A stretch of 64,000 nucleotides of DNA from an uncultured Candidatus Saccharibacteria bacterium. GTDB taxonomy: Bacteria > Patescibacteriota > Saccharimonadia > Saccharimonadales > 2-12-FULL-41-12. A model generated the notes under the pieces. It was given only the letters and a program-made list of their open reading frames with translations. It was not told the DNA's origin and ran no database searches. The DNA is taken from positions 121,004 through 185,003 of the forward strand of contig CAZNIK010000001.1 of the NCBI GenBank assembly GCA_964573095.1, given 5' to 3'. Below, in pieces: positions 25,327 through 64,000 of this stretch (positions within the stretch are counted from its first letter, which is position 1; each line of letters opens with the position of its first letter). The translations under genes were made by a program, and so were the position numbers.

Positions 25327-25871
25327 CGATGTTTGGCTTTTATTACGGCCCACTGGATGCTCGCGAGCAAGAATAGTAGCAGACAATAAAACAGCACTTC
25401 GCCGTAGAGTTCCAGCTTATATCCTTCGTTGAAGTAATGCACAAAATAGGCATTTGTGGTCAAAATGTACGCAATAATGCTGAGACCTGCCGTAAGGTAG
25501 ATCGCCCCTTTCCTTACAAGTATGGCCGACGAAATGATCGGGAGCGCGTAGAGGAGAACTGCTTTGCTGGCCATACCTCTCTCTAAATACACATACCAAG
25601 ATGCGAAGGCGATGTCAGTGACAATAAGAAGCCAAAAGAGTTTCTTGAGTCGGCGGCTGTCTTCTCGGGTTCGCGCTTGAAACCAACAAATACCAGCAAC
25701 TGCGGCCAGCACCCCCACTCCCAGCCAGCGTTTTAACACCACATCGGGCGTTATCAGCTTTCCGGCATCGAATATGATTATTTGCAGCGCTAAAACTGCG
25801 GCCAGCAAAAGATGAATCCTTGAAACCCTGGCCAGCGAGGGACCAAATGTATTTGTTTTATGCGCAGGCAT
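25320..25871 (-). CDS. hypothetical polytopic membrane protein
   Basis: 183 aa with about 5 hydrophobic helices. No family recognised. Confidence 0.5.
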   Translation of the reverse strand: MPAHKTNTFGPSLARVSRIHLLLAAVLALQIIIFDAGKLITPDVVLKRWLGVGVLAAVAGICWFQARTREDSRRLKKLFWLLIVTDIAFASWYVYLERGMASKAVLLYALPIISSAILVRKGAIYLTAGLSIIAYILTTNAYFVHYFNEGYKLELYGEVLFYCLLLFLLASIQWAVIKAKHRH

Positions 25872-25899
25872 GTATGGATGTATTAAAACATGAGCATAT

Positions 25900-26694
25900 T
25901 CAAGCGTCTAGTAGCGAGAGAATGAATTTGGCTGAGCGGCGCGAAATACCATGCATATCTGCCACGGTGTGGAAAGTAGTGTTGGGTTTATCTTTGAGCA
26001 GCTCGTCAATATTGGCCCGGGAGACAATTAAATCGAAGCGCCCATAAATAATATCGATCGGGATTGTCAGCTGACGTAACTCCTCTAATGACTCTTGACT
26101 AAGGATGGTATTTTTTAACGAACGCTCGAACGACACCCACACTTGATCGTTTATGCTTGCATGGCTGAGGCCGCGAATCATGTTGCTGCCAAGCTTTCCG
26201 TAAAACAGAGCGAGTTTGGGGTTATTCATTATGTGTTCGTAGACGGTAAAATACAGCCGTTTTCGATTTTTTATCGAAGTGTCTGTGGATTCCTGGCTAA
26301 AGAACGCGGGTTCATAGAGGATAAGCCTATTGACTTTTGTCGGGTAGGTTTTGGCAAAATGTGTTGCAATGATGCAGCCCATAGAATGGCCAATGAGCGT
26401 AATTTTTTGGCGTGGTCTTAGGCGCAGTGTCTTATGTATTGCGCGAACGTGCTCATCAACGTCGTAGCTGCTCCAGCTGGGCTTGGGTGATTTCCCAAAA
26501 CCGAGCAAATCAACACCAGTTACTGTCCATTTTGCTTTATTTATTAGCTTTACAAGTGGATTCCAGGTTTCAGCATTGTCGGCAATGCCATGCAAGAGAA
26601 CAAGAGTTTTGGCCCCCTCCCCTACGCGTATTCGTTTTTTTAATTTTATGGGACGTTTGAGCCAACGATACCAGAGCGTTTCAAATAGGTGCAT
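25900..26694 (-). CDS. alpha/beta hydrolase
   Basis: LVLLHGIADNAETW and the nucleophile elbow LIGHSMGC. Confidence 0.8.
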   Translation of the reverse strand: MHLFETLWYRWLKRPIKLKKRIRVGEGAKTLVLLHGIADNAETWNPLVKLINKAKWTVTGVDLLGFGKSPKPSWSSYDVDEHVRAIHKTLRLRPRQKITLIGHSMGCIIATHFAKTYPTKVNRLILYEPAFFSQESTDTSIKNRKRLYFTVYEHIMNNPKLALFYGKLGSNMIRGLSHASINDQVWVSFERSLKNTILSQESLEELRQLTIPIDIIYGRFDLIVSRANIDELLKDKPNTTFHTVADMHGISRRSAKFILSLLDA

Positions 26695-26717
26695 TGTTAC
26701 TCCACATTATAGGGCAT

Positions 26718-27578
26718 CTATTCTGTCAACGTGTCAGACCCGACCCACACATACTCCCACGATTCTGGTTCTGGGCCTTGTCTTGTAGCGCCGACTGGGT
26801 AGCTCGGTATCCAGCCAAACGTTTTTGCGTTTTTGTAGTTTTCGACGCTCAGCCACTGATAGCAGCTTGATCTGTCAAAAGAGACGAAGGGGTCGTTTTT
26901 GCAGGCAACGTCTATTGTGTAGCCGCTGTGGTGTCGAGAGTAGCCTGGAGGTGCCGTCGACGCCAGCACTCTTAAGACTTGTGCGTCATATGTGCCATTG
27001 CCAACTAATGAAGAAACAACCCCTTGAGCTTGGAGGCGATTAAGAAAAAGCTGTTTTTGATCTTCGGCGGAACGATATGCAGCCGTCAACTCTAATAACT
27101 GCCCAGATTGTTTCGCGCTGGCTTGCATCGATAGCCATGGTTGCACGGCTCTTTCTTGCAGCTGCATGCCTGGAGCAACGCTTCTAAAGGTGTCAGTGAC
27201 CGGTGCAGTTCTGATAGTGTAGCCACGAGTGGCTGCGAGTGACTTGATTCGCTCATCTGATACGGAAAAGCCAGTAATTGGTGTATGTTCATCTATTCTT
27301 TGGGTGTTCGGATAGGCAAATCGTTCGTAGAGTTCCCTAAATTGATCCCCAGTATATGTCTTAATAATGCCTGTCTTTTGTGGTGCTTGGACGCTGTTTG
27401 ACGAGGTGGTTGCATTGGTTGCGGGTGGTGCATCATTTGCCGTAAAAGCTCTATAAGCGACAAACCAAATAACACCTAGCAGTATGAGCAGTCCAATTGC
27501 TGCCAGCAGACTATCGCCCTCGTGGTGATTGTGGGATTTCTTGCGCGACTGCCTCGATCTGGGTTCTATAACTCTCAT
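26718..27578 (-). CDS. M15B (VanY-like) D-alanyl-D-alanine carboxypeptidase, membrane-anchored
   Basis: An N-terminal TM helix, then SRHHSGYTIDV (SxHxxGxAxD) and GWIPSYP...EPESWEYVWVG (the EPWHxRYVG equivalent). Confidence 0.8.
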   Translation of the reverse strand: MRVIEPRSRQSRKKSHNHHEGDSLLAAIGLLILLGVIWFVAYRAFTANDAPPATNATTSSNSVQAPQKTGIIKTYTGDQFRELYERFAYPNTQRIDEHTPITGFSVSDERIKSLAATRGYTIRTAPVTDTFRSVAPGMQLQERAVQPWLSMQASAKQSGQLLELTAAYRSAEDQKQLFLNRLQAQGVVSSLVGNGTYDAQVLRVLASTAPPGYSRHHSGYTIDVACKNDPFVSFDRSSCYQWLSVENYKNAKTFGWIPSYPVGATRQGPEPESWEYVWVGSDTLTE

Positions 27579-27626
27579 AATGTGCTTATGGCTATCATAG
27601 CACTCGGAAAAGATAACAGGTATACG

Positions 27627-28022
27627 CTAGATCTGGTGTTGTGGCGCGTCAATAAACGTCCCACCTTGAGAGTTTAGATCCTGGATAGTGATGACGCTTC
27701 CCTCGCGTCGAATAAGTGCGTGCAACTGCGAAACCGCTTCAGAAAATTCGAATCGCCCATGATCGTAGTCTTTACCAAGGCGCACCTCTTCACCATCGCC
27801 CAAGCCTTTAAAACCAATGTCCTCATAGCTATCAAAGGAACTTGGGTCAATTATTAGGCAGTCTCGCGTAAATGTACAACCGAGGTCACGTTCGGGCTGC
27901 ACAACTTTCAAGTGGTGGTCGCCAAGGTACACATCAACAGGACCTAGGCCTATATCCACTCTTTCTGCTAGTATCTCTCGTTTTTGTTCGTATGACGGAT
28001 AACCGTTGCGCTCAGAACTCAT
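27627..28022 (-). CDS. FHA domain-containing protein
   Basis: VRLGKDYDHGRFEFSEAVSQLHALIRREGSVITIQDLNSQGGTFID fits the FHA pattern (GR..SR.HA.i......DL.S.NGT). I prefer the start at ATG 28022 (MSSERNG) over 28103. Confidence 0.7.
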   Translation of the reverse strand: MSSERNGYPSYEQKREILAERVDIGLGPVDVYLGDHHLKVVQPERDLGCTFTRDCLIIDPSSFDSYEDIGFKGLGDGEEVRLGKDYDHGRFEFSEAVSQLHALIRREGSVITIQDLNSQGGTFIDAPQHQI

Positions 28023-28182
28023 AGTTTTAATAAACACTAAAGTAACATATTTTGTTTTCTTGGTGAATATTAGGTTGAAAAAATCGCAACATTGTACGGT
28101 CAAGTATCGTAGCTATTGTGTCGAGCTTGCGTTTCCGCTTGACCTTTGTAACTAACCGTACCATATACTAGCTGGAGTAAAT

Positions 28183-29358
28183 ATGAGCAACAATTCACAA
28201 ATACTGACAATAAATACCGGCTCTTCAAGTCTAAAGCTGCTTGTGTTTGAGGCGTCTGAAACATTTGTGCCGCGGATAAGGATAACAATTGACGGACTCG
28301 GGTTGCCGTCGAGCAAACTTGAGCTTACAACATACGACGGGGATCCACAGACGCTTTCCAAGCGATGCGGCTCGCTAGACCACGTTCATGCCTTGCATGC
28401 CGCCCTCGGCGAGTTAGACGAAAGGAGTATACTGAACGCGGTTGCAGCGGTTGGCTACAGAGTCGTGTTTGGAGGGCCTCATCTTAGAAGTTCACAACTA
28501 ATCAACGAAGATGTCTTGCGGCAGCTAGAGAGTTATGCGCAATTCGATCCAGACCACATGCCCTTTACTATCCAGATCATCAAGCTGCTACAAGAACGTT
28601 TTAGTGGCCAGGCGCATGTGGCATGCTTTGATACCGCATTCTTTTCGCAGTTGCCAAGCGTTGCTCAGACGCTGCCGCTGCCAAAGAGCATTCGGGACAA
28701 GGGAGTTCTTAAGTATGGTTACCACGGCCTTTCGTATACATACCTACTGTCTCGACTAGAAGAACTGGACACAGTACAAGATAAAAAAATTATTTTGGCA
28801 CACCTCGGTAGTGGTGCGAGTCTTGCGGCGGTCAAAAATGGCCAGCCAATCGACACAACGATGAGTTTTAGTCCGACGTCTGGCATTCCAATGAGTTCAA
28901 GGAGTGGCGATCTTGACCCCTCAATCGCGAGCTTTCTTATCAAACAAGAAGGCATGGATATAGAAAATTTTGCCTACATGACAAACAGAGAATCTGGGTT
29001 GCTGGGGATCTCCGAAACCACCGCCGACATGTACTCTTTATTGCAACAAGAAGACAACGACCCCAGATCAAAAGCAGCTGTCAATAGTTTCTGTTACCAC
29101 GTTCGCAAAGCGATTGGCGCGCTGTCGGCGAGTCTAAATGGACTTGATCTAATTGTGTTTTCGGGAGGGATTGGCGAGCAGTCTGCGCCGATTCGGGCTC
29201 GAGTTTGCGAAGGATTGAGCTACCTCGGCGTAGAAGTTGATAGCGAAAAAAATAATCAAAATAGTGAAATTATTTCAAAAGAAGGTACAATAACCATAAG
29301 GGTACTACACACAGAAGAGGAGCAAATAATAGCCCGCGATTCAGCTCGTTTTATTTAG
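28183..29358 (+). CDS. ackA: acetate kinase
   Basis: ILTINTGSSSLKL (acetokinase signature 1), YGYHGLSY and VFSGGIGE. Confidence 0.92.
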   Translation: MSNNSQILTINTGSSSLKLLVFEASETFVPRIRITIDGLGLPSSKLELTTYDGDPQTLSKRCGSLDHVHALHAALGELDERSILNAVAAVGYRVVFGGPHLRSSQLINEDVLRQLESYAQFDPDHMPFTIQIIKLLQERFSGQAHVACFDTAFFSQLPSVAQTLPLPKSIRDKGVLKYGYHGLSYTYLLSRLEELDTVQDKKIILAHLGSGASLAAVKNGQPIDTTMSFSPTSGIPMSSRSGDLDPSIASFLIKQEGMDIENFAYMTNRESGLLGISETTADMYSLLQQEDNDPRSKAAVNSFCYHVRKAIGALSASLNGLDLIVFSGGIGEQSAPIRARVCEGLSYLGVEVDSEKNNQNSEIISKEGTITIRVLHTEEEQIIARDSARFI

Positions 29359-29395
29359 ATGAGTCGTTTTGGGCGGTGCTTAAGCAAGGTGGGAT

Positions 29396-31765
29396 ATGTT
29401 TGAAGAAGACAAGCCATTATCAGATGAAATGTTGCGCAAAATCCATGCGTATTGGCGGGCCACCAACTATGTTTCGGTTGGGCAAATATACTTAAAAGAC
29501 AATCCGTTGCTTCGAGAGCCGTTGCAGCTTGAACATGTCAAAAAAATCTTGCTCGGCCACTGGGGCACGACGCCGGGCCAAAACTTTATTTATGTGCACC
29601 TAAATCGGATTATTAACAAACACAAAACAAATATGATCTATTTGTCGGGTCCGGGACATGGCGGTCCGGCACTGTTTGGAAATGTCTATTTGGAGGGCAC
29701 ATTTTCCGAATATTACCCCAATGTGCAACAAAACGAGGAGGGGTTACGAAACCTGTTTAAGATGTTTTCTTTTCCTGGTGGACTGTCAAGTCATGTGTCG
29801 CCTCAAGTACCCGGTTCGATTCACGAAGGCGGTGAGCTCGGTTATTCCCTTAGTCATGCGTATGGTGCGGTGTTTGATAATCCAGACCTCATTGCGGTGT
29901 GCGTGGTTGGTGACGGCGAAGCCGAAACCGGACCGCTTGCGACTGCGTGGCACTCGAACAAGTTTTTGAATCCGATTCATGACGGAGCAGTTTTGCCGGT
30001 TCTGCACCTCAATGGCTATAAAATAAGCAACCCCACAGTGCTCGCCCGAATCGAACGCGAAGAGTTAGAGCAACTTTTCCGAGGCTACGGCTACACGCCC
30101 TATTTTGTTGAAGGTGATGATCCAATGGAGATGCACCAACTTATGGCCTTTCAGTTAGAGTCGGCAGTTCAAGAAATTCAACGAATCCAAGAGAATGCAC
30201 GGCGACACAACAACACGACTCGCCCGAGATGGCCGATGATAATTCTTAATTCTCCCAAGGGTTGGACTGGGCCACAAGTGGTTGACGGTCACAAGATAGA
30301 GAACAATTTTCGCTCTCACCAAGTGCCAATACTGATTGACGAAGAAAATCGGGCAAACTTGACGCTGCTTGAAGAGTGGATGAGAAGCTATAAGCCGGAA
30401 GAGCTGTTTGATGAAGAAGGTCGACTTATTTCGGAACTTGCGGAGTTGGCGCCAAAGGGACATCATCGAATGGGAGCGAACAAGCATGCCAATGGCGGCA
30501 GTTTGCTTCGAGAATTACACCTCCCAGACTTCCGAGATTATGCGGTCGGAGTTCCCTACCCTAGCGGTGGGAAGGTTGGTAATGTTCATGCGCTTGGTCC
30601 GTATTTGCGCGATGTAATAAAACTGAATCAAGAACATCGCAATTTTAGATTGTTTGGCCCTGACGAGACCGTGTCGAATAGGCTCGAAGCGGTTTTTGAG
30701 GCTACAAATCGGCAGTGGGACGCTCGAATTCGAGAGTCTGATGAGTTCTTGGCTCCAGACGGTGCGGTGCTGGACTCGATGTTGAGCGAGCATCAGTCTC
30801 AAGGTTGGCTCGAGGGCTATTTGCTGACAGGTAGGCACGGTATACTCAACAGCTACGAGGCGTTTATTCGTATTGTCGACTCAATGGTGAACCAGCACGC
30901 CAAGTGGATCAAAATGTCCTCTGAGCTTGCCTGGAGAGAGCCCATTTCCTCGCTCAACTATCTGCTGACCTCTCATGTGTGGCGCCAGGACCACAATGGA
31001 TTTACCCACCAGGACCCTGGGTTTATTGATCATCTGGTCAACAAAAAGGCTGCCACCGCGCGTGTTTATTTGCCCCCCGATGCGAATACTTTACTTTCGG
31101 TTACCGAGCATTGTTTGCGCAGTCGTAACTACATTAATCTGACGATTTGCGGTAAGCATGACGGGCCCCAATGGCTCAACATCGAAGAAGCGACAATGCA
31201 TTGTACGGTTGGTGTCGGAGTGTGGGACTGGGCGAGCACCGACCAAGGCGGAGAGCCGGATGTGGTTATGGCGAGTGCGGGGGACGTACCGACGCTTGAG
31301 TCAATTGCTGCGGTTTCGATTCTTCGTAAAGCACTACCCCATCTTAAAATACGCGTAGTAAACGTGGTGGACCTAATGAGGCTAGAACCCGACACCGAAC
31401 ATCCGCATGGTTTAAGCGATGTTGAGTATAACGAGATATTCACCCAAGACAAAAACATTATCTTTGCCTTCCATGGTTATCCGTGGCTAATCCATCGGCT
31501 TACCTACAGAAGAAAAAACTCCAACATGCACGTTCGTGGATATGTAGAAGAAGGCACAATTACAACTGCATTTGACATGACTGTGATGAACAAGCTCGAT
31601 AGATTTCATTTGGTAATGGACGTCATCGACAGAGTGCCGCATCTTGGAGAAGCTGGCGATAGTCTGCGCGAAGAGATGGAAAAAAAGCTGATAGAACACA
31701 AAAACTACATCGCGCACCACGGGGTGGACATGCCAGAAGTGCGCGATTGGCAGTGGGATTTGTAA
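29396..31765 (+). CDS. xfp: xylulose-5-phosphate/fructose-6-phosphate phosphoketolase
   Basis: 789 aa. [24 protein letters not shown] and GDGEAETGP are XFP signatures. Confidence 0.95.
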
Positions 31766-31833
31766 AACCGCGGTCACTCTCTTTCAAACCAACTAGATAG
31801 TTGCTACAATTACATCTGTTAATCGCGAATCGG

Positions 31834-31884
31834 TGGGGAGTGGCCAAGTGGTAAGGCACCAGGTTTTGGTCCTGGCATTCGGGG
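31834..31884 (+). pseudogene. 51-nt exact copy of the 5' part of tRNA-Gln (acceptor 5' strand through the start of the T stem)
   Basis: 31834-31884 is identical to 32025-32075. No matching 3' acceptor strand (CTCCCCA) follows, so it cannot fold as a tRNA on its own. Confidence 0.85.
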
Positions 31885-32024
31885 TGAGATCCGCCCGTGG
31901 CGGATCGCAAGGGAGTCAACGCTTGCAAACTGGTTTGCAAAGATGTTGCGACGGGCTCGCCGAAGGTGAGTCGAGTCCTAGATTCGAACCACGATTTACA
32001 TTTACAAACATAATCGTCCGTTGA
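31885..32024 (+). ncRNA. candidate structured RNA / insertion between the tRNA-Gln fragment and the intact tRNA-Gln
   Basis: Consecutive stems: GATCCGCC/GGCGGATC (31888-31906); GCAAG/CTTGC; TTGCAAA/TTTGCAA (about 31922-31939); GGCTCGCC/GGTGAGTC (about 31953-31972). A T-loop-like GTCGAGTCC lies at 31970-31978. The strand is assumed from the tRNA context. Confidence 0.3.
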
Positions 32025-32099
32025 TGGGGAGTGGCCAAGTGGTAAGGCACCAGGTTTTGGTCCTGGCATTCGGGGGTTCGAGTCCCTCCTCCCCAGCCA
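32025..32099 (+). tRNA. tRNA-Gln (anticodon TTG), CCA encoded
   Basis: Cloverleaf: TGGGGAG/TG/GCC-AAGTGGTAA-GGC/A/CCAGG-TTTTGGT-CCTGG/CATTC/GGGGG-TTCGAGT-CCCTC/CTCCCCA/G/CCA. Confidence 0.95.
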
Positions 32100-32257
32100 G
32101 ATGCTGCAGTTGAAAATCAGACCTATCTCCCCATTGCTGAGCAGGAAAGAAGGCTTTATTTAGTATTTAGGTTACTCTACCAAGCCCGCAATTCTAGCCA
32201 ATTACTTCGAAAATGTTACAGTAGGAGAATACTGAATTTATCGACTATACTTTGAGT

Positions 32258-33217
<960 letters not shown>

Positions 33218-33256
33218 TTCTATTTGTTTCGTTTGATTCGACTTTTTTAGTCGGTT

Positions 33257-33892
33257 TTAGCTCACAAAACTAGTTTCTGATCGCCGTTGTAGCTCACTAT
33301 CAGCCGTATCACCTTTCAAGCCCTCGACCACGAGTCCTACTAAACGTTCAGCCTCGTCGTCAACAGAACGATCAAGTTGCTGCAGGACGTGGTATGGGTG
33401 GTGGTAATACACGGTGGAGCTGAAGACTGCCCGAGCTTCTTGTTCGGTGTCGCTTACATTGAATAGCCCGGCTTTATTGCCGTCTTCAATGATTTGCCTT
33501 ATTTGCCCAACCAGCTCATCAATATGCTCCCTAATCACGCTATGGGATCTCTCGGCAATCTGGTGGTATTTGGCGAACATTTCCGGGTCGCTTTTGGCAA
33601 CGTTGTGTTTAATGCGAATTAACGCCATAAGCCATTCGTGCAGGCGTTCGTCGGCTGGAGTATCTTTGGCCGCAATTGCTGGCAGGTTTCCGCTAAAAAC
33701 GGGGAGCCACCGGCGCATGACCGCGTCGAACAGGGCTGCTTTGTCGGGGAAATACCGATACAAGCTGCCGTGTGTGACGCCTAGTGCTTTGGCAACATCT
33801 ACAACCGACGTCTTATCCGGGCCGTAACGACGTAACAGCTCGGTAGTGGTGTCGAGTATTAGGTCGTTATTAAGTGATTCGGCCTTTGGCAT
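33257..33892 (-). CDS. TetR/AcrR family transcriptional regulator
   Basis: The N-terminal HTH is TSVVDVAKALGVTHGSLYRYFPDKAAL. Confidence 0.85.
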   Translation of the reverse strand: MPKAESLNNDLILDTTTELLRRYGPDKTSVVDVAKALGVTHGSLYRYFPDKAALFDAVMRRWLPVFSGNLPAIAAKDTPADERLHEWLMALIRIKHNVAKSDPEMFAKYHQIAERSHSVIREHIDELVGQIRQIIEDGNKAGLFNVSDTEQEARAVFSSTVYYHHPYHVLQQLDRSVDDEAERLVGLVVEGLKGDTADSELQRRSETSFVS

Positions 33893-34605
33893 TAGGGCTC
33901 CTGGATATCTAAAACGTCGTCCCCGGATTGGATAAGCTCACCAATCTTTTCGGCCACCGCTTCGGGCGATATGACGTGCGGTAGTAAACTGCCGTCCGGT
34001 GCGTGACGCAGGGCATCCGGCTCAGGAAAGTCCGTGTGTTGGCCAAAGCCGGTGTCAACAATACCAGGGCGGATTATGCTCACAACAATGTTGTCCTTAG
34101 TTAATTCCTCACGAGCGGTCAACGACAGATTGTTCAGCGCATATTTTGTTGAAGCATACCCGGCGATATAGGGGATAAACTTCAGTGAAGCTTGCGAGCT
34201 GATATTCAGAATCGTGCCACTACCCTGTTTGCGCATTTGTGGAATTACTAATTGCATCAGATTAAGTGGCGCTACGACGTTAAGCTCTAGTAGTTTACGG
34301 TACCCGTCGATGTTGATTTTCTCAACCGGCGCGGCCATCGCTTGGGCTGCGCCGTTGATGAGTATGTCAATTCGGCCGAATTTTTCAATGGTCTTGTCTA
34401 CCAGCTGTTTTGCTTCATTCGGCTTGGTAACGTCGGTCGGAACAGCAAATGAACCAGCAATTTCCTTTTCGAGTACCTGGAGCTTCTCTGCTTCGCGCGA
34501 AGCCAATACAACCTTCGCTCCTTTGCTAGCCAGATGTTTAGCGGTTGCCAGTCCTATGCCGGATGACGCGCCGGTAATGATAATAACTTTGTCTTCTATC
34601 TCCAT
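33892..34605 (-). CDS. SDR family oxidoreductase
   Basis: TGASSGIG cofactor motif and the catalytic YASTK (YxxxK). Confidence 0.88.
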   Translation of the reverse strand: MEIEDKVIIITGASSGIGLATAKHLASKGAKVVLASREAEKLQVLEKEIAGSFAVPTDVTKPNEAKQLVDKTIEKFGRIDILINGAAQAMAAPVEKINIDGYRKLLELNVVAPLNLMQLVIPQMRKQGSGTILNISSQASLKFIPYIAGYASTKYALNNLSLTAREELTKDNIVVSIIRPGIVDTGFGQHTDFPEPDALRHAPDGSLLPHVISPEAVAEKIGELIQSGDDVLDIQEP

Positions 34606-34607
34606 AA

Positions 34608-35288
34608 TTACCCCTTTACAACTTTAATGTTAAACATTGGGCTGTTGATTGCTCCCCACACACGCAGCCACAGCGGCAGGAACATCTCAGTGCCCCGGGC
34701 GGTGGTGATATCACCAAGATCAATGATATTCTCCCAGCCATAGCTTTTGATAATTTCGACTACCTTTGTTTTCGCTGATTCATCATTGCCGCTCACAAAG
34801 ATATGATGGTCTCCACTTGCCAGACTTTTCGGGTTTACTTGTACGAGCGCATTTGTGGTGTTGAAAGTTTTGACGATCTTAGCTTTGGGCAAGGCTTTTT
34901 GAGTCTGTTCACCTAGGCTGTCGGTGTTGCTTACAAATAATGAAGGCGGCATACCTTTGGAGAAATCCAAAGGATTGGCAATGTCGATCAGAACCTTATC
35001 TCCGATTGCCTCCTCTAGTCCTTTCAGAACCTCAACTGTCACATGACCGGCCAGTGCATTAAAAATAATTTCGCCCTGTGCGGCCGCTTCGGAAAAGGTT
35101 GCGAGCTTAACGGCTTCTTTTTCTTTGTGCCATTCACTGAAGGGTGGATTGCCGATGTTGTCGTTGTCTGTCTTTGCCATTGTCTTGACGACATCTTGAG
35201 TGCCCAGAACAACGTCATTGCCCAGCTCTGCTAGTCTTGTTGCGTGGGCTCGGCCGACCATGCCTGTGCCCAAAACTGCTATTTTCAT
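34608..35288 (-). CDS. NADP oxidoreductase, F420-dependent-type (Npd/ProC-like) Rossmann protein
   Basis: MKIAVLGTGMVGRAHATRLAELGNDVVLGT is an N-terminal GxGxxG fold. The length and remaining sequence are typical of the NADP_oxidored_coenzyme F420-dependent family. Confidence 0.65.
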   Translation of the reverse strand: MKIAVLGTGMVGRAHATRLAELGNDVVLGTQDVVKTMAKTDNDNIGNPPFSEWHKEKEAVKLATFSEAAAQGEIIFNALAGHVTVEVLKGLEEAIGDKVLIDIANPLDFSKGMPPSLFVSNTDSLGEQTQKALPKAKIVKTFNTTNALVQVNPKSLASGDHHIFVSGNDESAKTKVVEIIKSYGWENIIDLGDITTARGTEMFLPLWLRVWGAINSPMFNIKVVKG

Positions 35289-35324
35289 ATTAAACCCCTC
35301 TTTGCATTAGCTTGTACCAATAAT

Positions 35325-35350
35325 AGTAACATATTCTGTTTATTGTTACT
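35325..35350. promoter_or_regulatory. candidate TetR operator (inverted repeat) in the promoter of the 35288-33257 operon
   Basis: AGTAACA (35325-35331), 12 nt, TGTTACT (35344-35350). It lies 37 nt upstream of the first gene of a four-gene minus-strand operon that ends with the TetR gene. Confidence 0.4.
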
Positions 35351-35547
35351 CTGTCTTGATTCTAAACTTGGTCAGAACATTAAATTTTAGCTTCGTCTGG
35401 TCGGGTAGTTCGACGTTGCGGACTCGGGCGGCGGTGTAGTCCTCCTTTAGATCGAAGTTCATAGTCCAATATATCCCCTGGCCCTTGCGCAGAAGGACTA
35501 TAATATAAGTAGTAGTAACGCAGAGCGCGAAGCGCGAAGGAGGAGTT

Positions 35548-36060
35548 ATGGGAAATCTAACATCTAACTTGCCAAAGCTAGACATGAGCACGTCCACAAC
35601 TGGGTGCTGCCCTGTCTTTAATCCTGCCGAGTGGGACGGGAAACTGTTTGAATTTAATAATAAACCGTTCATTAAGGACCACATGGTGAGCTTCATGCAC
35701 ATTCCTTTGAACATGGGCAAAGTAATGAGTCGTCTGCAGAAACATGCCGAAGACAATGATGCCACAGCAGAGGACTTTATTCTGCTCAGTCAAGATGTTT
35801 CTCCGTGGCACGCAGATCATTACTATGCGGTGAGTAAGGAAGTACCTGGCGCCGAGATGGTTACGTTAAATGGTACGTTTTTTGCTAAAGTGTACGAAGG
35901 TCAGTTTAAGGACGTGGGAGCGTGGCACAAAGACCTCATTGCGACTGTCGAGAAAAGAGGCGATGAGCTAAAGCGTCTATTCTTTTACTACACAACCTGC
36001 CCAAAGTGCGCCAAGGTGTACGGCAAAAACTACGTGGTTGGTTTGGCCGAAATAAAATAA
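35548..36060 (+). CDS. hypothetical protein (conserved-looking, Cys-rich ends)
   Basis: 170 aa. GAAGGAGG lies 5 nt upstream. It has an N-terminal CCPVFNPAEWD and a C-terminal YTTCPKCAKVYGKNY. No family confidently recognised. Confidence 0.6.
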   Translation: MGNLTSNLPKLDMSTSTTGCCPVFNPAEWDGKLFEFNNKPFIKDHMVSFMHIPLNMGKVMSRLQKHAEDNDATAEDFILLSQDVSPWHADHYYAVSKEVPGAEMVTLNGTFFAKVYEGQFKDVGAWHKDLIATVEKRGDELKRLFFYYTTCPKCAKVYGKNYVVGLAEIK

Positions 36061-36099
36061 GCAATACATTTTAAGGTTGTCGTCGTATACACTTGAATA

Positions 36100-36507
36100 A
36101 TGCGCCTTGGTAAGCAAGAACTATTTCGAAGCATGACTTTGGGAGTCCTGCTGTATTCTGTGGTGCTTGGATTTTTTAATGACTACACTGATATTTTGGA
36201 CACCGGATCGTACTCTACTACGTTTGCTGTAGCGGTTGTGCTGCAGCTGCTGACATTTGTTACATTCGAGTTTAAGCGGAGGGTTGTAACGGCCTTTCGA
36301 AGTAAAGACAAGACCAGTAAGGTGGCCCTGGCGCTATCTGTATGGTTGATTATGTTTGTGTCAAAATTTGTCTTTTTGGCAGTGATAGATGTTATTTTTG
36401 GCAACAATGTAAGTGTTAGCGGGTTTGTTGGACTGCTTCTGATAATTGCCTGCCTCACACTCACCCAAAACCTGGTCGAACGGATAGATAAAAGTCTTGC
36501 GACATAA
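36100..36507 (+). CDS. hypothetical membrane protein
   Basis: 135 aa with four hydrophobic segments. Confidence 0.5.
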   Translation: MRLGKQELFRSMTLGVLLYSVVLGFFNDYTDILDTGSYSTTFAVAVVLQLLTFVTFEFKRRVVTAFRSKDKTSKVALALSVWLIMFVSKFVFLAVIDVIFGNNVSVSGFVGLLLIIACLTLTQNLVERIDKSLAT

Positions 36508-36614
36508 ACTTACCCTCGTCAATTTATCAGTCTTTCTCTAGGAGTGGTGTCTATCTTGCTACTGCTTGCTTATGCTGTTGATCCGCCTATATAATCTGTA
36601 AACCAGGAGACAAA

Positions 36615-37124
36615 TTGGACGAGAAAGCGATCAAAACGTGTTTTGAATATCAAAAGCTTGTTGAGCAGGCTGCACTGGGTGGATATTGTTCAGAGGACGT
36701 CAAGAGAATAAGTGAAGTAATCAAGTCCTTAGACCATGAGTCGAAGCTTGATATTTACAGATCAGCGTTTGACGAGGCTTATGAGACGGCTAGAGAGCTT
36801 TGCAGCAACAGTCTGAGTGGTGATAGTTTGAATGGCTGGCGATTTGATCTTACGGCGCATAATCTTGGTGTGGTGTGCATAAACTACGGGCCGCATAACA
36901 AACAAGAGTTTTCTAAAGATGTGCTTGATAGCACTGGCCTTAAAATGGTAAGTGTTGACGTTGAATCATTTAGGCAAAATATGGGTTCTCCTCAGACAAG
37001 TCTTTCGCTGTACAAATCTGAGGCCTATGATAGCGAGGATAACTCATATCAAGATATCGACCAGCAGTTACTAAGGGTGTTAGATGCATTAGAAACTCTC
37101 CATGTCGTAAAAGAGCACATCTAA
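36615..37124 (+). CDS. hypothetical protein
   Basis: 169 aa. TTG start with AGGAGA (36604-36609) 5 nt upstream. No family recognised. Confidence 0.45.
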   Translation: MDEKAIKTCFEYQKLVEQAALGGYCSEDVKRISEVIKSLDHESKLDIYRSAFDEAYETARELCSNSLSGDSLNGWRFDLTAHNLGVVCINYGPHNKQEFSKDVLDSTGLKMVSVDVESFRQNMGSPQTSLSLYKSEAYDSEDNSYQDIDQQLLRVLDALETLHVVKEHI

Positions 37125-37174
37125 AAGGAGGTGTCCTTCGCCTGCGGCCTTGCTCTACGCTATACTTAGCGATA

Positions 37175-38011
37175 ATGAGGCTAAAGAGTACGGAACCCGC
37201 AAGCAGAACGGTTATTATTACCGGTGCATCTTCGGGCATCGGTAGGGCCACTGCCCTTTACTTTGCATATCAAGGGTGGAACGTAGTTGCAACGTCAAGA
37301 AGTGGCAAAAGGCTTGAAGAATTTCGGGAATATGCTAATATTTCTTGTCAAAAACTGGATGTAACCAATCAAGAATCAATCCGTAGCGTGATAGAAAAAA
37401 CTGCAAAGAAGTATGCGTCGATTAATGTGGTTGTAAATAACGCGGGGTATGGAACTCTTGGGGCGTTTGAAGCATCAACCCCGAGTCAAGTTAGGGCGCA
37501 ATTTGACGTAAATGTGTTTGGGTTAATGGATGTCGTTCGTGAAGTTGTACCGGTTTTTCGAAAACAAAAACATGGGGTAATTGTGAACATTTCCTCGATG
37601 GGCGGTCGAATCACCTTCCCTCTGTATGGCGTGTATCACGCAACCAAGTGGGCTGTTGAGGGGTTTAGCGAATCGCTAGCGTATGAATTGCGACCATTTG
37701 GAATTACCGTTAAATTGATCGAGCCTGGAACAATCAAAACCGAATTTATTGGCAAGTCTGAGGTGCGGTTTTCTAAGCGTGGGCTGAAAGAATATAGTGA
37801 TTATGAAAAGATGGTCGTCAGTAATTTTCACAAATCCTATAGAGATGCTACAAATCCGATCGTGGTTGCAAAAAAGATATATCAAGCTAGTACTGATGGC
37901 AAAAATAAGCTTCGCTACCCCGTGGCAAAGCCGGCTTTATCACTCATATTGCTCAAAAAACTGCTGCCAGAGTCGGTGTTTTTTTGGTTTGTTCGTTCTC
38001 AGCTGAAATAA
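37175..38011 (+). CDS. SDR family oxidoreductase
   Basis: TGASSGIGRA, NNAG and the catalytic YHATK. Confidence 0.88.
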   Translation: MRLKSTEPASRTVIITGASSGIGRATALYFAYQGWNVVATSRSGKRLEEFREYANISCQKLDVTNQESIRSVIEKTAKKYASINVVVNNAGYGTLGAFEASTPSQVRAQFDVNVFGLMDVVREVVPVFRKQKHGVIVNISSMGGRITFPLYGVYHATKWAVEGFSESLAYELRPFGITVKLIEPGTIKTEFIGKSEVRFSKRGLKEYSDYEKMVVSNFHKSYRDATNPIVVAKKIYQASTDGKNKLRYPVAKPALSLILLKKLLPESVFFWFVRSQLK

Positions 38012-38017
38012 TTCGAG

Positions 38018-39238
38018 TTAATTGGAAAATAGGTCCAAGTCTTTGAGTTCGGGTGGCAAAAAACCATTTTTGTGCACAAACCCGGCTTCCCACTTGGTTC
38101 CCTCTCCGTAACCGAGATCCTTCATTAGTTTGGTCGGTGAATTTCTTAGATGAAGCGGCACTGGAAGATCTGAGTTTTCGGAAGCGGCTTTTTTGGCTCT
38201 ATTCATAGCGTTTGTCACCGCTCGAGATTTTTTGCATTTTGCCAAGACGGTCGCACAGTGATACAGATTATATTCGCACTCGGGCATTCCTATCCGCTCG
38301 ACAGCTAAAAACGTCGAAACAGCAATGTTGAGCGCTGCTGAAGCCTCGAGTCCAATATCTTCGCTTGCAAAGATTACCATTCGTCGTGCGATGAATTTTG
38401 GGTCTTCTCCTGCTTGTAGCATTCTGGCGAGATAGTAGAGCGCGGCGTTTGCATCGCTCCCCCGCAAGGCTTTAATAAAAGCGCTTATGACATTGTAGTG
38501 ATACTCGCCCTTCTTGTCGTAGCTGGGTAGTCTTTTTTGGGCCGCGGCCTCTATTTTTTCTTTGGACAAGGAGGTCGAATCGAGTGTGAGGGCAAGCTCT
38601 AGGTTTCCCAAAGCCACGCGGGCGTCTCCGTTCGCTAATTCGGCCAAATATTCTATGCTCTCTTTGGGAAAAACAGCCTGGGAAATGTGTAGCTGTTTGG
38701 CTGCTTGATTGAGTATCCTGACTAGCTCTCGTTTGCTTAATGGCTCTAAAACCAACACCTTGCTACGGCTGAGCAGCGGGTTGATCACTTCAAAGCTCGG
38801 ATTCTCCGTGGTTGCACCGATGAGGATAATTGTTCCGTTCTCGACGTGAGGCAAAAAGGCGTCTTGCTGAGCTTTGTTAAATCGATGTATTTCATCAACA
38901 AACAGGGTAGTTCTCTGTTTTAGTCGTTGGTTTTGTTTGGCGTGTTCAATCACCTTTGAAACATCTGCCTTCCCCGAGGTAACTGCGCTCAGTTCGATGA
39001 AATCAGTCTTTGTTTCCTGGGCGATTATTCGAGCAAGTGTTGTCTTGCCGCTTCCAGGAGGACCCCATAGTATGAGGCTCACCGGTTGTTTACTTTTTAT
39101 TATCTCTCGCACAAGCTGTCCTTTGCCGGTAAGGTGTGTTTGGCCGACAAACTGTTTGAGGCTTTTGGGCCGCATTCTTTCTGCAAGTGGCGTAGACATA
39201 CTACCCATTATACGCAGTTGTTTTGCTTGTGCTTGCAA
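38018..39238 (-). CDS. rarA: replication-associated recombination protein A (AAA+ ATPase RarA/MgsA)
   Basis: PLAERMRPKSLKQFVGQTHL, Walker A GPPGSGKTT, Walker B LFVDEIHRFNK and the MgsA C-terminal domain (YDKKGEYHYNVISAFIKALRGSDANAALYYLARM). The true start is probably ATG 39199 or 39208. Confidence 0.93.
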   Translation of the reverse strand: MQAQAKQLRIMGSMSTPLAERMRPKSLKQFVGQTHLTGKGQLVREIIKSKQPVSLILWGPPGSGKTTLARIIAQETKTDFIELSAVTSGKADVSKVIEHAKQNQRLKQRTTLFVDEIHRFNKAQQDAFLPHVENGTIILIGATTENPSFEVINPLLSRSKVLVLEPLSKRELVRILNQAAKQLHISQAVFPKESIEYLAELANGDARVALGNLELALTLDSTSLSKEKIEAAAQKRLPSYDKKGEYHYNVISAFIKALRGSDANAALYYLARMLQAGEDPKFIARRMVIFASEDIGLEASAALNIAVSTFLAVERIGMPECEYNLYHCATVLAKCKKSRAVTNAMNRAKKAASENSDLPVPLHLRNSPTKLMKDLGYGEGTKWEAGFVHKNGFLPPELKDLDLFSN

Positions 39239-63658: not shown

Positions 63659-63710
63659 ATTTTGACCTTTATTACATAGTTACATTAATTCCAGAAACTG
63701 TATCGACCAT

Positions 63711-63739
63711 AAAAAAAGTCCCTGGATGAAACCAAAGAC
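63711..63739 (-). terminator. attenuator-type hairpin plus U7 in the rplJ leader
   Basis: On the minus strand, GTCTTTGG (63739-63732) pairs with CCAGGGAC (63725-63718) across a TTTCAT loop (including two G-U pairs), then TTTTTTT (63717-63711). It lies 52 nt upstream of the rplJ start. Confidence 0.5.
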
Positions 63740-64000
63740 CAATATAAGCACGCTTGCTAAATATTTGCTCCTCGGTAGCATTCTTAATCTCGCTTTTCGA
63801 GACGCTACTGTCTTCGGTAACTAGTGACTTATTTTATCAGAATACGACGAACAGAGCAACTACTCTAGTGGCGCGAGCATCGCGTATCTATCCGGCGAGA
63901 AGATTCCAGAAATATTTAGTGACATATCGCCGAGTTTTGTGGCTACTTCTTGCTCACGACTGCCGTTATGTGTAGCGTCAAGGTCGGCTGGCGCCCCTCC

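Follow-up and report, generated by a model that had tools for sequence, protein, structure and literature searches.

The tRNA-Gln locus described here, from an uncultured Candidatus Saccharibacteria bacterium (CPR, Saccharimonadales), is more interesting than a plain att scar, in that it ties a duplication of the 5' side of a tRNA gene to a covarying hairpin element. In the window, as we call the whole stretch of 64,000 nucleotides that was analysed, the first 51 nt of a tRNA-Gln (UUG) gene occur twice, the left copy abutting an 88-nt element of three hairpins (the A element) and the right copy belonging to the intact gene; relatives carry an empty site, the breakpoint can be placed to the base, and A elements with sharp ends and a conserved fold recur at other loci. 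CPR bacteria have tiny genomes, usually with one gene per tRNA, and for that reason breaking a tRNA gene is risky in them. Rebuilding of a tRNA gene from its 5' side is rarely seen, and a second case is found here in another Saccharibacteria species. If the A element is a recombination site, it would represent an undescribed route of DNA insertion beside tRNA genes in CPR bacteria, and should it be an RNA, tRNA-Gln transcripts would have a new motif associated with them; at a practical level, short-k assemblies break at partial tRNA copies and repeats of this sort, which can also cause tRNAs to be misannotated in metagenome-assembled genomes. The history that we favor, and that we hold to be as easily right as wrong, is that a 191-bp module with no ORF entered tRNA-Gln bringing its own nt 1-51, in which case the 51-nt copy would be the orphaned 5' two-thirds of the original gene.

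The tRNA-Gln locus and its empty site

The features of the locus are collected in Table 1. The exact 51-nt duplication that was the core of the original prediction stands, with 51 of 51 positions identical between 31834-31884 and 32025-32075 and exact identity ending at both borders, and a weaker repeat reaches 14 nt farther upstream (31820-31884 vs 32011-32075, 91% identical, with TAATCG in both). The repeated part spans the acceptor 5' strand, D arm, anticodon arm, variable loop, and four G of the T stem, and no second copy of the tRNA-Gln 3' end occurs in the window with up to 3 mismatches allowed. ARAGORN calls the intact gene alone, while the left copy goes uncalled and scores 21.6 bits against RF00005, under the gathering score of 29; with this score and no acceptor 3' strand, the left copy is ruled out as a functional tRNA gene. 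The stems noted earlier between the two copies are all present (an 8-bp GATCCGCC/GGCGGATC stem, TTGCAAA/TTTGCAA, and an 8-bp stem with a GAA loop that includes two G-U pairs), as are the T-loop-like GTCGAGTCC at 31970-31978 and the two copies of GGTGAG at 31883-31888 and 31965-31970. GTCGAGTCC corresponds to tRNA nt 53-62 minus one T and pairs as a 7-bp hairpin with TAGATTCGAACC, an inverted T-loop fragment.

Table 1. Features of the tRNA-Gln locus, in window coordinates.
Feature	Position	Strand	Basis
Promoter-like site TTCAAA-16-TACAAT with TG extension, upstream of orphan 5' fragment	31783..31810	+	Consensus scan
Orphan tRNA-Gln (UUG) 5' part, nt 1-51	31834..31884	+	Exact repeat; L003 synteny ends at 31884
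A element, 88 nt, three hairpins	31885..31972	+	Homologous copies, covariation, covariance model R1, fold
T-loop fragment pair, GTCGAGTCC then TAGATTCGAACC	31970..31990	+	Sequence, inverted-repeat list, fold
Substitute leader of intact gene	31991..32024	+	Repeat comparison, promoter scan
Intact tRNA-Gln (UUG), encoded CCA	32025..32099	+	ARAGORN, Rfam (63.2 bits), flank comparisons

The leader of the orphan fragment is conserved in the two alternative loci considered below (L003 and L166), and its promoter-like site is the sole one on the + strand from the phosphoketolase gene to the intact tRNA (consensus scan). Apart from TAATCG and a TTACAT-like stretch, which it shares with the native leader, the substitute leader of the intact gene has diverged, and the same scan finds no full promoter-like site in it. 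Co-transcription of the orphan, the A element and the intact tRNA is therefore plausible from the arrangement of these signals, and since the only promoter-like site lies upstream of the orphan, the intact tRNA would probably be cut by RNase P from a precursor with a leader of roughly 210 nt (orphan plus A element). In the minimum-energy fold of this precursor the orphan acceptor strand is able to pair with the true tRNA 3' end, which suggests a possible cost to tRNA maturation.

The phosphoketolase gene, itself preceded by acetate kinase, lies upstream of the tRNA locus and served to find its counterparts. Scans of genomes and metagenomes with the phosphoketolase gave a sole close locus, in the Candidatus Saccharimonadales MAG L003, where the protein is 98% identical in amino acids and the flanking DNA 85% identical; many other Saccharibacteria phosphoketolases stand at 76-84%, and no tRNA follows the phosphoketolase in the more distant Saccharibacteria. 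By blastn, L003 1-6489 matches window 25399-31884 and L003 7709-10367 matches window 36038-38673, the first block stopping at the final base of the 51-nt fragment. L003 has a single intact tRNA-Gln behind the same leader, with one T-loop base different from the window gene, and L166 and L191, from the same species as the window, have one intact tRNA-Gln where the window has the 51-nt fragment. As in classical integration, relatives (L003, L166) thus have an empty site and the breakpoint falls within a tRNA gene. Since synteny with L003 ends where it does and an intact gene stands there behind the same leader, the fragment is the 5' part of the ancestral gene in its original place, and since the native trailer is retained behind the intact copy, the tRNA locus differs from the empty site, on balance, by 191 inserted bp that the 51-nt direct repeat bounds. 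The 3' flank of the intact gene (GATGCTGCAG...) also follows the last tRNA 3' repeat in L166 and resembles the L003 trailer. The left copy is accordingly a former tRNA-Gln interrupted in its T arm, as had been proposed, at the same position and behind the same leader as the single gene of L003 and L166. Of the decayed 3' acceptor also proposed there is no sign: after 9 nt of T loop the sequence turns to the inverted T-loop fragment and the substitute leader. The A element is missing from the sister species L003, and hence dispensable.

A second allele within the species is represented by L166, L167, and L191-L198, whose aldo-keto reductase is 99% identical to that of the window and whose flanks are identical or near-identical. 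First in these loci stands the intact tRNA-Gln behind its native leader. Next are a terminator-like hairpin, an inverted T arm in degenerate form, and a homologue of the window spacer that finishes in a perfect copy of the tRNA 3' end (TCGAGTCCCTCCTCCCCAGCCA); then come a terminator, an M23 peptidase gene, the last 49 nt again (hairpin 3 plus tRNA 3' end), and the common trailer. The whole amounts to an insertion of 1291 bp at the tRNA 3' end, made of tandem units of 185 and 1106 bp that each close with a 22-nt repeat, and is the classical 3'-end pattern. Because the L166 A element lies inside this repeat-bounded insertion, A is part of the material that recombines at the tRNA site. After the L166 element come a terminator-like hairpin and then a T run, and before it stands ...GATAGATTCGGGG, which runs directly into TGAGA and includes the 8-nt ATTCGGGG that occurs also in the tRNA (nt 44-51). 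The window stretch to the right of A resembles the L166 stretch to the left of A, where a sequence like window 31970-31990 (GGAGTCGGAGCCCCGATAGATTCG) is found. At the start of the M23 peptidase insert (L166 4008-4036), CCCGAGTGGGCATTCGGGATGAGAT looks like a decayed version of the window junction of tRNA 5' fragment and TGAGA. A stretch ahead of the last repeat in L166 was considered as a further full A copy and rejected (covariance model R1 E = 0.034, fold z = +1.8).

Window and L166 are about 100% identical in the flanks and 95-96% identical across the 700 nt just upstream of the tRNA (31136-31833), so that the two alleles are old or were imported by recombination; this tract, which takes in the end of the phosphoketolase gene together with the leader, has the look of a recombination tract adjoining the tRNA locus. 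Counting the species and its sister together, no fewer than three states of the locus are known.

The adjoining DNA is variable in its own right. Downstream, window 32100-36040 is a 4-kb block with genes for an aldo-keto reductase, a TetR protein, an SDR and an NADP oxidoreductase and a hydrolase-like ORF of 170 aa; it stands in place of three small unrelated ORFs of L003, is present in both alleles of the window species, and forms a separate variable region relative to L003. A donor was sought through relatives of the aldo-keto reductase, which came from the same species only and then from Bacteroidota at 80-82% identity; since these are the nearest outside the species, horizontal acquisition of the reductase is suggested. 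A 157-aa ORF of L003 and one of the same length in another Saccharibacterium (L199) were compared and are not homologous. Far from the locus, window 63703-63835 on the - strand carries a ribosomal protein L10 leader (63 bits, above the Rfam gathering score).

A covarying hairpin element beside tRNA fragments

The A element consists of UGAG(A), hairpin 1 (31885-31909), UCGCAAGG, hairpin 2 (31912-31952), CGG, and a GAA-looped hairpin 3 (31954-31972). That the spacer between the tRNA copies is densely structured is borne out by folding, the 140-nt spacer being more stable than its shuffles on the + strand (z = -3.19) and the 88-nt core likewise (z = -3.23, with 0 of 200 shuffles equally stable). 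Homologous copies exist outside the window: the spacer matches the L166 element by blastn with 72.5% identity over 102 nt (E = 2e-10), and a third copy occurs in L208, a different Saccharibacterium. From an almost gap-free alignment of these three copies RNAalifold derives three hairpins with 34 pairs, 14 of which keep pairing with changes on both sides; slid controls, with partners moved by 1-3 columns, give 1-4 compensatory pairs. In the named structure 91% of cells are paired, and the observed values were reached by 0 of 500 column shuffles. The joints UGAG, GCAAGG, and CGG are invariant, and in no copy is hairpin 1 related in sequence to hairpin 3. Folded alone, each copy takes the same shape (z = -3.2 to -3.5), the + strand being stabler than the - strand in 3 of 3, and G-U pairs occupy seven cells of the alignment against at most one for A-C. 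The fold has been kept by compensatory changes among independent copies.

Covariance model R1 matches the window A element at E = 7e-22 and, over 242 kb of Saccharibacteria loci, returns only the known copies plus a fourth distinct one in L197, so that family-level statements are based on few sequences (4 distinct copies from 2 species). No further copy was found in the 64-kb window by blastn-short or by R1 with filters off; a very weak R1 match at 36002-36078 (7.9 bits, E = 4.4), on the right border of the variable 4-kb block, is probably due to chance. The structured stretch of roughly 82-88 nt that had been singled out is nonetheless a discrete unit with sharp ends that recurs at other loci. 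In the four-way alignment its left end is fixed between G and TGAG, while the flanks of the four copies on that side are unrelated to one another (tRNA-Gln nt 51; an inverted T arm, degenerate; an inverted fragment of a foreign tRNA; tRNA-Gln (CUG) nt 17), and its right end is the foot of hairpin 3. Every copy adjoins a tRNA fragment and lies on the tRNA sense strand: after nt 51 of tRNA-Gln, in the T arm, in the window; after nt 17 of tRNA-Gln (CUG), in the D loop, in L208; and upstream of the tRNA-Gln 3' repeat in L166 and L197. The L197 copy is identical to that of L166 from TCGCAAGG onward and has five changes in hairpin 1, all of which keep the pairs; as its hairpin 1 and left flank are nevertheless different, A copies evidently recombine or exchange parts. 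That flank (L197 1-28, where the contig ends) matches, in reverse complement, another tRNA at its 3' end (CCCAGTTCGAGTCTGGGAGGAGCCACCA), so A elements are not limited to tRNA-Gln.

The copies have neither a target-site duplication nor terminal inverted repeats in common. GGTGAG, which the original prediction had likened to a target duplication, is repeated in the window alone, where hairpin 3 has the second copy as its 3' strand, and not in L166, L197, or L208; it is therefore not a target duplication. The three aligned copies each have AAGG(R) with TTG or ATG 7 nt on, opening 19, 26, and 24 codons as counted by eye, and a small protein was rejected, in that the 2-nt length difference of L208 shifts the frame and substitutions follow pairing rather than codons.

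Could the element be a functional noncoding RNA, acting as a processing, stability or regulatory module of tRNA-Gln transcripts, with the tRNA fragments incidental to it? We consider this unlikely, if not markedly so, and it would be compatible with either of the DNA-level histories weighed below. The covarying hairpins with their constant single-stranded joints are what such an RNA would be expected to display, but folded single-stranded DNA sites, for example integron attC, would yield the same covariation. Also in favor of an RNA are the excess of G-U over A-C, the better folding of the + strand in all three copies tested, and the uniform orientation of the copies, all in the sense of the tRNA; in the window and L208, moreover, A lies between the sole promoter-like site and the tRNA, and in L166 it is followed by the terminator-like hairpin and T run. 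Its position relative to the tRNA varies, however, being upstream in two loci and downstream in two, no known family matches it, and its absence from L003 marks it as dispensable. As for a functional tRNA-half hybrid, the other reading first put forward, what is conserved between the window and L208 copies is the hairpin element and not the tRNA half (51 nt vs 17 nt).

The layout of L208 repeats that of the window with another isoacceptor. This contig, in which an M23 peptidase gene precedes the acetate kinase-phosphoketolase pair, has in order a leader, nt 1-17 of tRNA-Gln (CUG), the A element, the 7 bases of nt 20-26, 35 nt that read as an inverted D-arm fragment plus a substitute leader, and an intact tRNA-Gln (CUG). 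Its tRNA copies are 144 nt apart and have leaders that are alike but not identical; the topology is that of the window, with the break in the D loop instead of the T arm. The earlier comment that att sites are not normally marked by a duplicated 5' part was a fair one, and the finding of the same atypical layout at another isoacceptor indicates that the window architecture is not a one-off accident.

Two further species (L199, L210) have a different set of hairpins downstream of tRNA-Gln, which the tRNA 3' end, repeated in inverted form, closes and which ends in a copy of that 3' end, an exact 23 nt in L199 (z = -6.45) and degenerate in L210 (z = -2.9); in L199 the tRNA 3' end repeats bound a 176-nt unit. 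In this group, then, tRNA-Gln genes are a general hotspot for small gene-less insertions rich in hairpins. Other irregularities lie near the same genes. Downstream of tRNA-Gln in L199 there are two small ORFs, each with a copy of a 22-nt repeat, GTTCTAACTTCGTCGRTRAYCC, behind it (2369-2390 and 2889-2910); the second copy lies within a hairpin ending in CCCCAGTCA, which is like a tRNA 3' end, and the layout is suggestive of single-gene inserts in an array. One sample lacks the body of tRNA-Gln (CUG) (L206 ~440-470 vs L208 688-790), a UUG-type 3' end (GTCCTGTCTCCCCAGCCA) being fused to the trailer of the CUG gene, which is another rearrangement of tRNA-Gln. In L210, a decayed copy of tRNA-Gln may occupy 1206-1297, 43 nt upstream of the intact gene, with which this stretch has TGGGGA at its start and CTCATCCCCA at its end in common; its structure is not a strong one (z = -0.9). 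Four different Saccharibacteria (L166, L199, L205-L209, L210) have homologous M23 peptidase genes no more than a few kb downstream of tRNA-Gln, in one of them between tRNA-Gln and the acetate kinase-phosphoketolase pair.

Possible histories of the locus

The proposed module would comprise the 88-nt A element, the T-loop fragment pair, and a substitute leader with its own tRNA nt 1-51, and one of its ends would adjoin the T arm after G52. Recombination in the common 5' sequence would strand the old 5' part upstream, fused to the A element, and leave a rebuilt gene made of nt 1-51 of the module and the resident nt 52-76 and trailer, the outcome being a mirror image of the usual 3'-side att duplication left by integrative elements. 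Such a module would belong to a family of gene-less insertions of 144-191 bp that flank Saccharibacteria tRNA-Gln and are bounded by direct repeats of tRNA segments. Its appeal lies in the same topology recurring in L208, in another species and at another isoacceptor, in a left end of A that stays fixed beside four unrelated flanks while the right end stays fixed at hairpin 3, and in the L166 copy within a repeat-bounded 1291-bp insertion, together with the mosaic relation of the L197 and L166 copies. It also draws on the empty site in L003 and in L166 and L191, the native trailer behind the intact copy, the conserved fold of A, and the fall in identity between the window and L166 alleles upstream of the tRNA. 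That a module, rather than a deletion fusing two genes, brought the 5' part is an inference, as are the involvement of an enzyme, co-transcription, and a fold that acts either in RNA or in single-stranded DNA. Several points weigh against a module. A 191-bp module is not able to move alone, and among the genes called in the roughly 5 kb to each side of loci of the window and L166 types there is no integrase or other recombinase; the crossover at nt 52 in the window vs nt 17 in L208 is unexpected with one site-specific enzyme; and searches for a free or independent donor copy of leader, 5' part, and A gave none. In addition, ATTCGGGG, the 8 nt that the tRNA has in common with the sequence to the left of A in L166, permits a simple deletion or microhomology join instead.

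Such a join is the main rival, and one that we hold to be rather improbable. It supposes an ancestor, or imported DNA from a relative, with tRNA-Gln, a spacer, ATTCGGGG leading into A, the substitute leader, and a second tRNA-Gln, in which recombination between the two copies of ATTCGGGG dropped the 3' end of the first gene. As a second full gene would already have stood downstream in the ancestor or donor, no mobile module carrying a 5' part is needed. L166 offers exactly such geometry downstream of its intact gene, with GATAGATTCGGGG running into TGAGA and the same 8 nt as in the tRNA, and the likeness between the stretch right of A in the window and left of A in L166 hints at former tandem units; the tract of 95-96% identity upstream points to imported DNA, and the possible decayed copy just upstream of the intact gene in L210 would fit as well. 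Yet no locus with two complete tandem tRNA-Gln genes was seen, and a break exactly at the left end of A in two species would be rare by random deletion unless that end is a preferred break site.

Two further explanations carry little weight. An assembly artefact, in which two strain variants were joined through their common tRNA sequence, is highly unlikely as the source of the window junctions. Short-k Logan contigs from several samples do end or start in the tRNA (L002 at nt 36 of tRNA-Gln; L163, L164, and L167 from nt 28), as expected with a repeat or mixed alleles, so that short-k assemblies cannot separate the alleles, and two alleles do coexist in sister samples; but both junctions are present also in the JGI metagenome contig Ga0490024_001745 (L001), which differs from the window by ~1% in the downstream genes, and L208 has the same layout in another species and sample. 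The 51-nt repeat is shorter than the large k values usual in metagenome assemblers.

An intervening sequence, whether intron or excised insert, in a working tRNA-Gln gene is close to refuted, and we give it hardly any credence. The insert does lie in a loop closed by the arm's own stem (the T loop in the window and L166, the D loop in L208), but a complete interrupted copy is nowhere seen, the window having no acceptor 3' strand, L208 only 7 nt after the insert, and L166 no 5' part. An insert of 88 nt is too short for a group I intron, and Rfam gives no match to Intron_gpI at thresholds as loose as E = 10. Introns in tRNA genes abound in Patescibacteria, but those described are of group I and lie in the anticodon loop (PMC13011429).

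Comparison with known systems

Searches of databases gave no counterpart. Rfam 15, run on the window, L195, L199, L208, and L210 with gathering and E-value thresholds, returned only tRNA matches and noise; at the spacer, as the check suggested for it would have it, tRNA-Gln alone is called by cmscan and ARAGORN and the spacer falls in no Rfam family. The blastn search against phage and plasmid records gave no match, nor did IMG/VR contain the tRNA 3' end, the 5' part, or the A-specific pattern. A looser pattern had 19 matches in IMG/VR, all of them unrelated and lacking any hairpin or tRNA context, and chance alone, roughly estimated, would give a number of that order or above; a phage or plasmid end was rejected. 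By these searches the A element appears to be an undescribed hairpin element, present in no database searched here.

Integrative elements at tRNA genes usually leave an att duplication on the 3' side, and their integrase-less remnants are known as CIME-like. The insertions at tRNA-Gln are like att-site duplications, these remnants included, in that a direct repeat of a tRNA segment bounds the inserted DNA, in that the gene is rebuilt from the element's own copy, and in that different insertions occupy the same site (tandem units in L166, the 176-nt unit in L199). They are unlike them in that the window repeat is the 5' part (nt 1-51), that the 191-bp insert is gene-less with no integrase nearby, that the window junction lies at the end of a covarying three-hairpin element, and that the second case breaks in the D loop. 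A classical integrative element in the window was rejected, as the repeat there is not the tRNA 3' part, which is the part repeated in L166 (22 nt) and L199 (23 nt); the 191 bp leave no room for an integrase, and the Pfam lists of the neighbouring genes contain no recombinase. A parallel from the 5' side is provided by the integrases specific for dusA, which target the 5' end of that gene and restore it (PMC4482086). There too the 5' end of the target is replaced, so that the element needs a start and leader of its own, but dusA elements are large islands with an integrase and a protein gene as target (PMC4482086), while the window insertion has no integrase and a substitute leader without a clear promoter.

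Small structured intergenic repeats and MITE-like elements (BOX, RUP, and REP types) form another point of reference. The A element resembles them in its size of about 100 nt, its wealth of hairpins, its lack of ORFs, and its several diverged and mosaic copies, but has no terminal inverted repeats or target duplication, occurs once in 64 kb, and is always at a fragment of a tRNA arm. A usual transposon (MITE or IS) was rejected, in that no target duplication is shared and the element ends are not inverted repeats. Hairpin elements derived from IS200/IS605 would be recognised by subterminal hairpins that resemble each other at the two ends and by a transposase elsewhere in the genome; of A it can be said that hairpins 1 and 3 have unrelated sequences.

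Integron attC sites are recombination sites formed by folded single strands, and A is like them in keeping its structure while its sequence drifts and in lying, in L166, at the left border of a one-gene insert, that of the M23 peptidase, whose right border has only hairpin 3 and the tRNA 3' repeat. It differs in that R''/R' boxes were not recognised by eye, no integron integrase was seen, and the element is tied to tRNA 3' repeats. The group I introns of Patescibacteria, which are longer than 200 nt, sit in the anticodon loop and leave both exons intact (PMC13011429), share with A the phylum and the interruption of tRNA genes by structured RNA, and differ from its 88-nt insert in the T arm with no 3' exon after it. 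Against this background the A elements might be a new kind of small structured element of CPR bacteria, a folded-single-strand recombination site or a mobile RNA-like module, that enters the T or D loops of tRNAs while a supplied or adjoining fresh copy keeps the gene working. This tentative reading, which we rate as rather doubtful, would account both for 5'-side duplications and for arrays of single-gene inserts downstream of tRNA-Gln with no local integrase.
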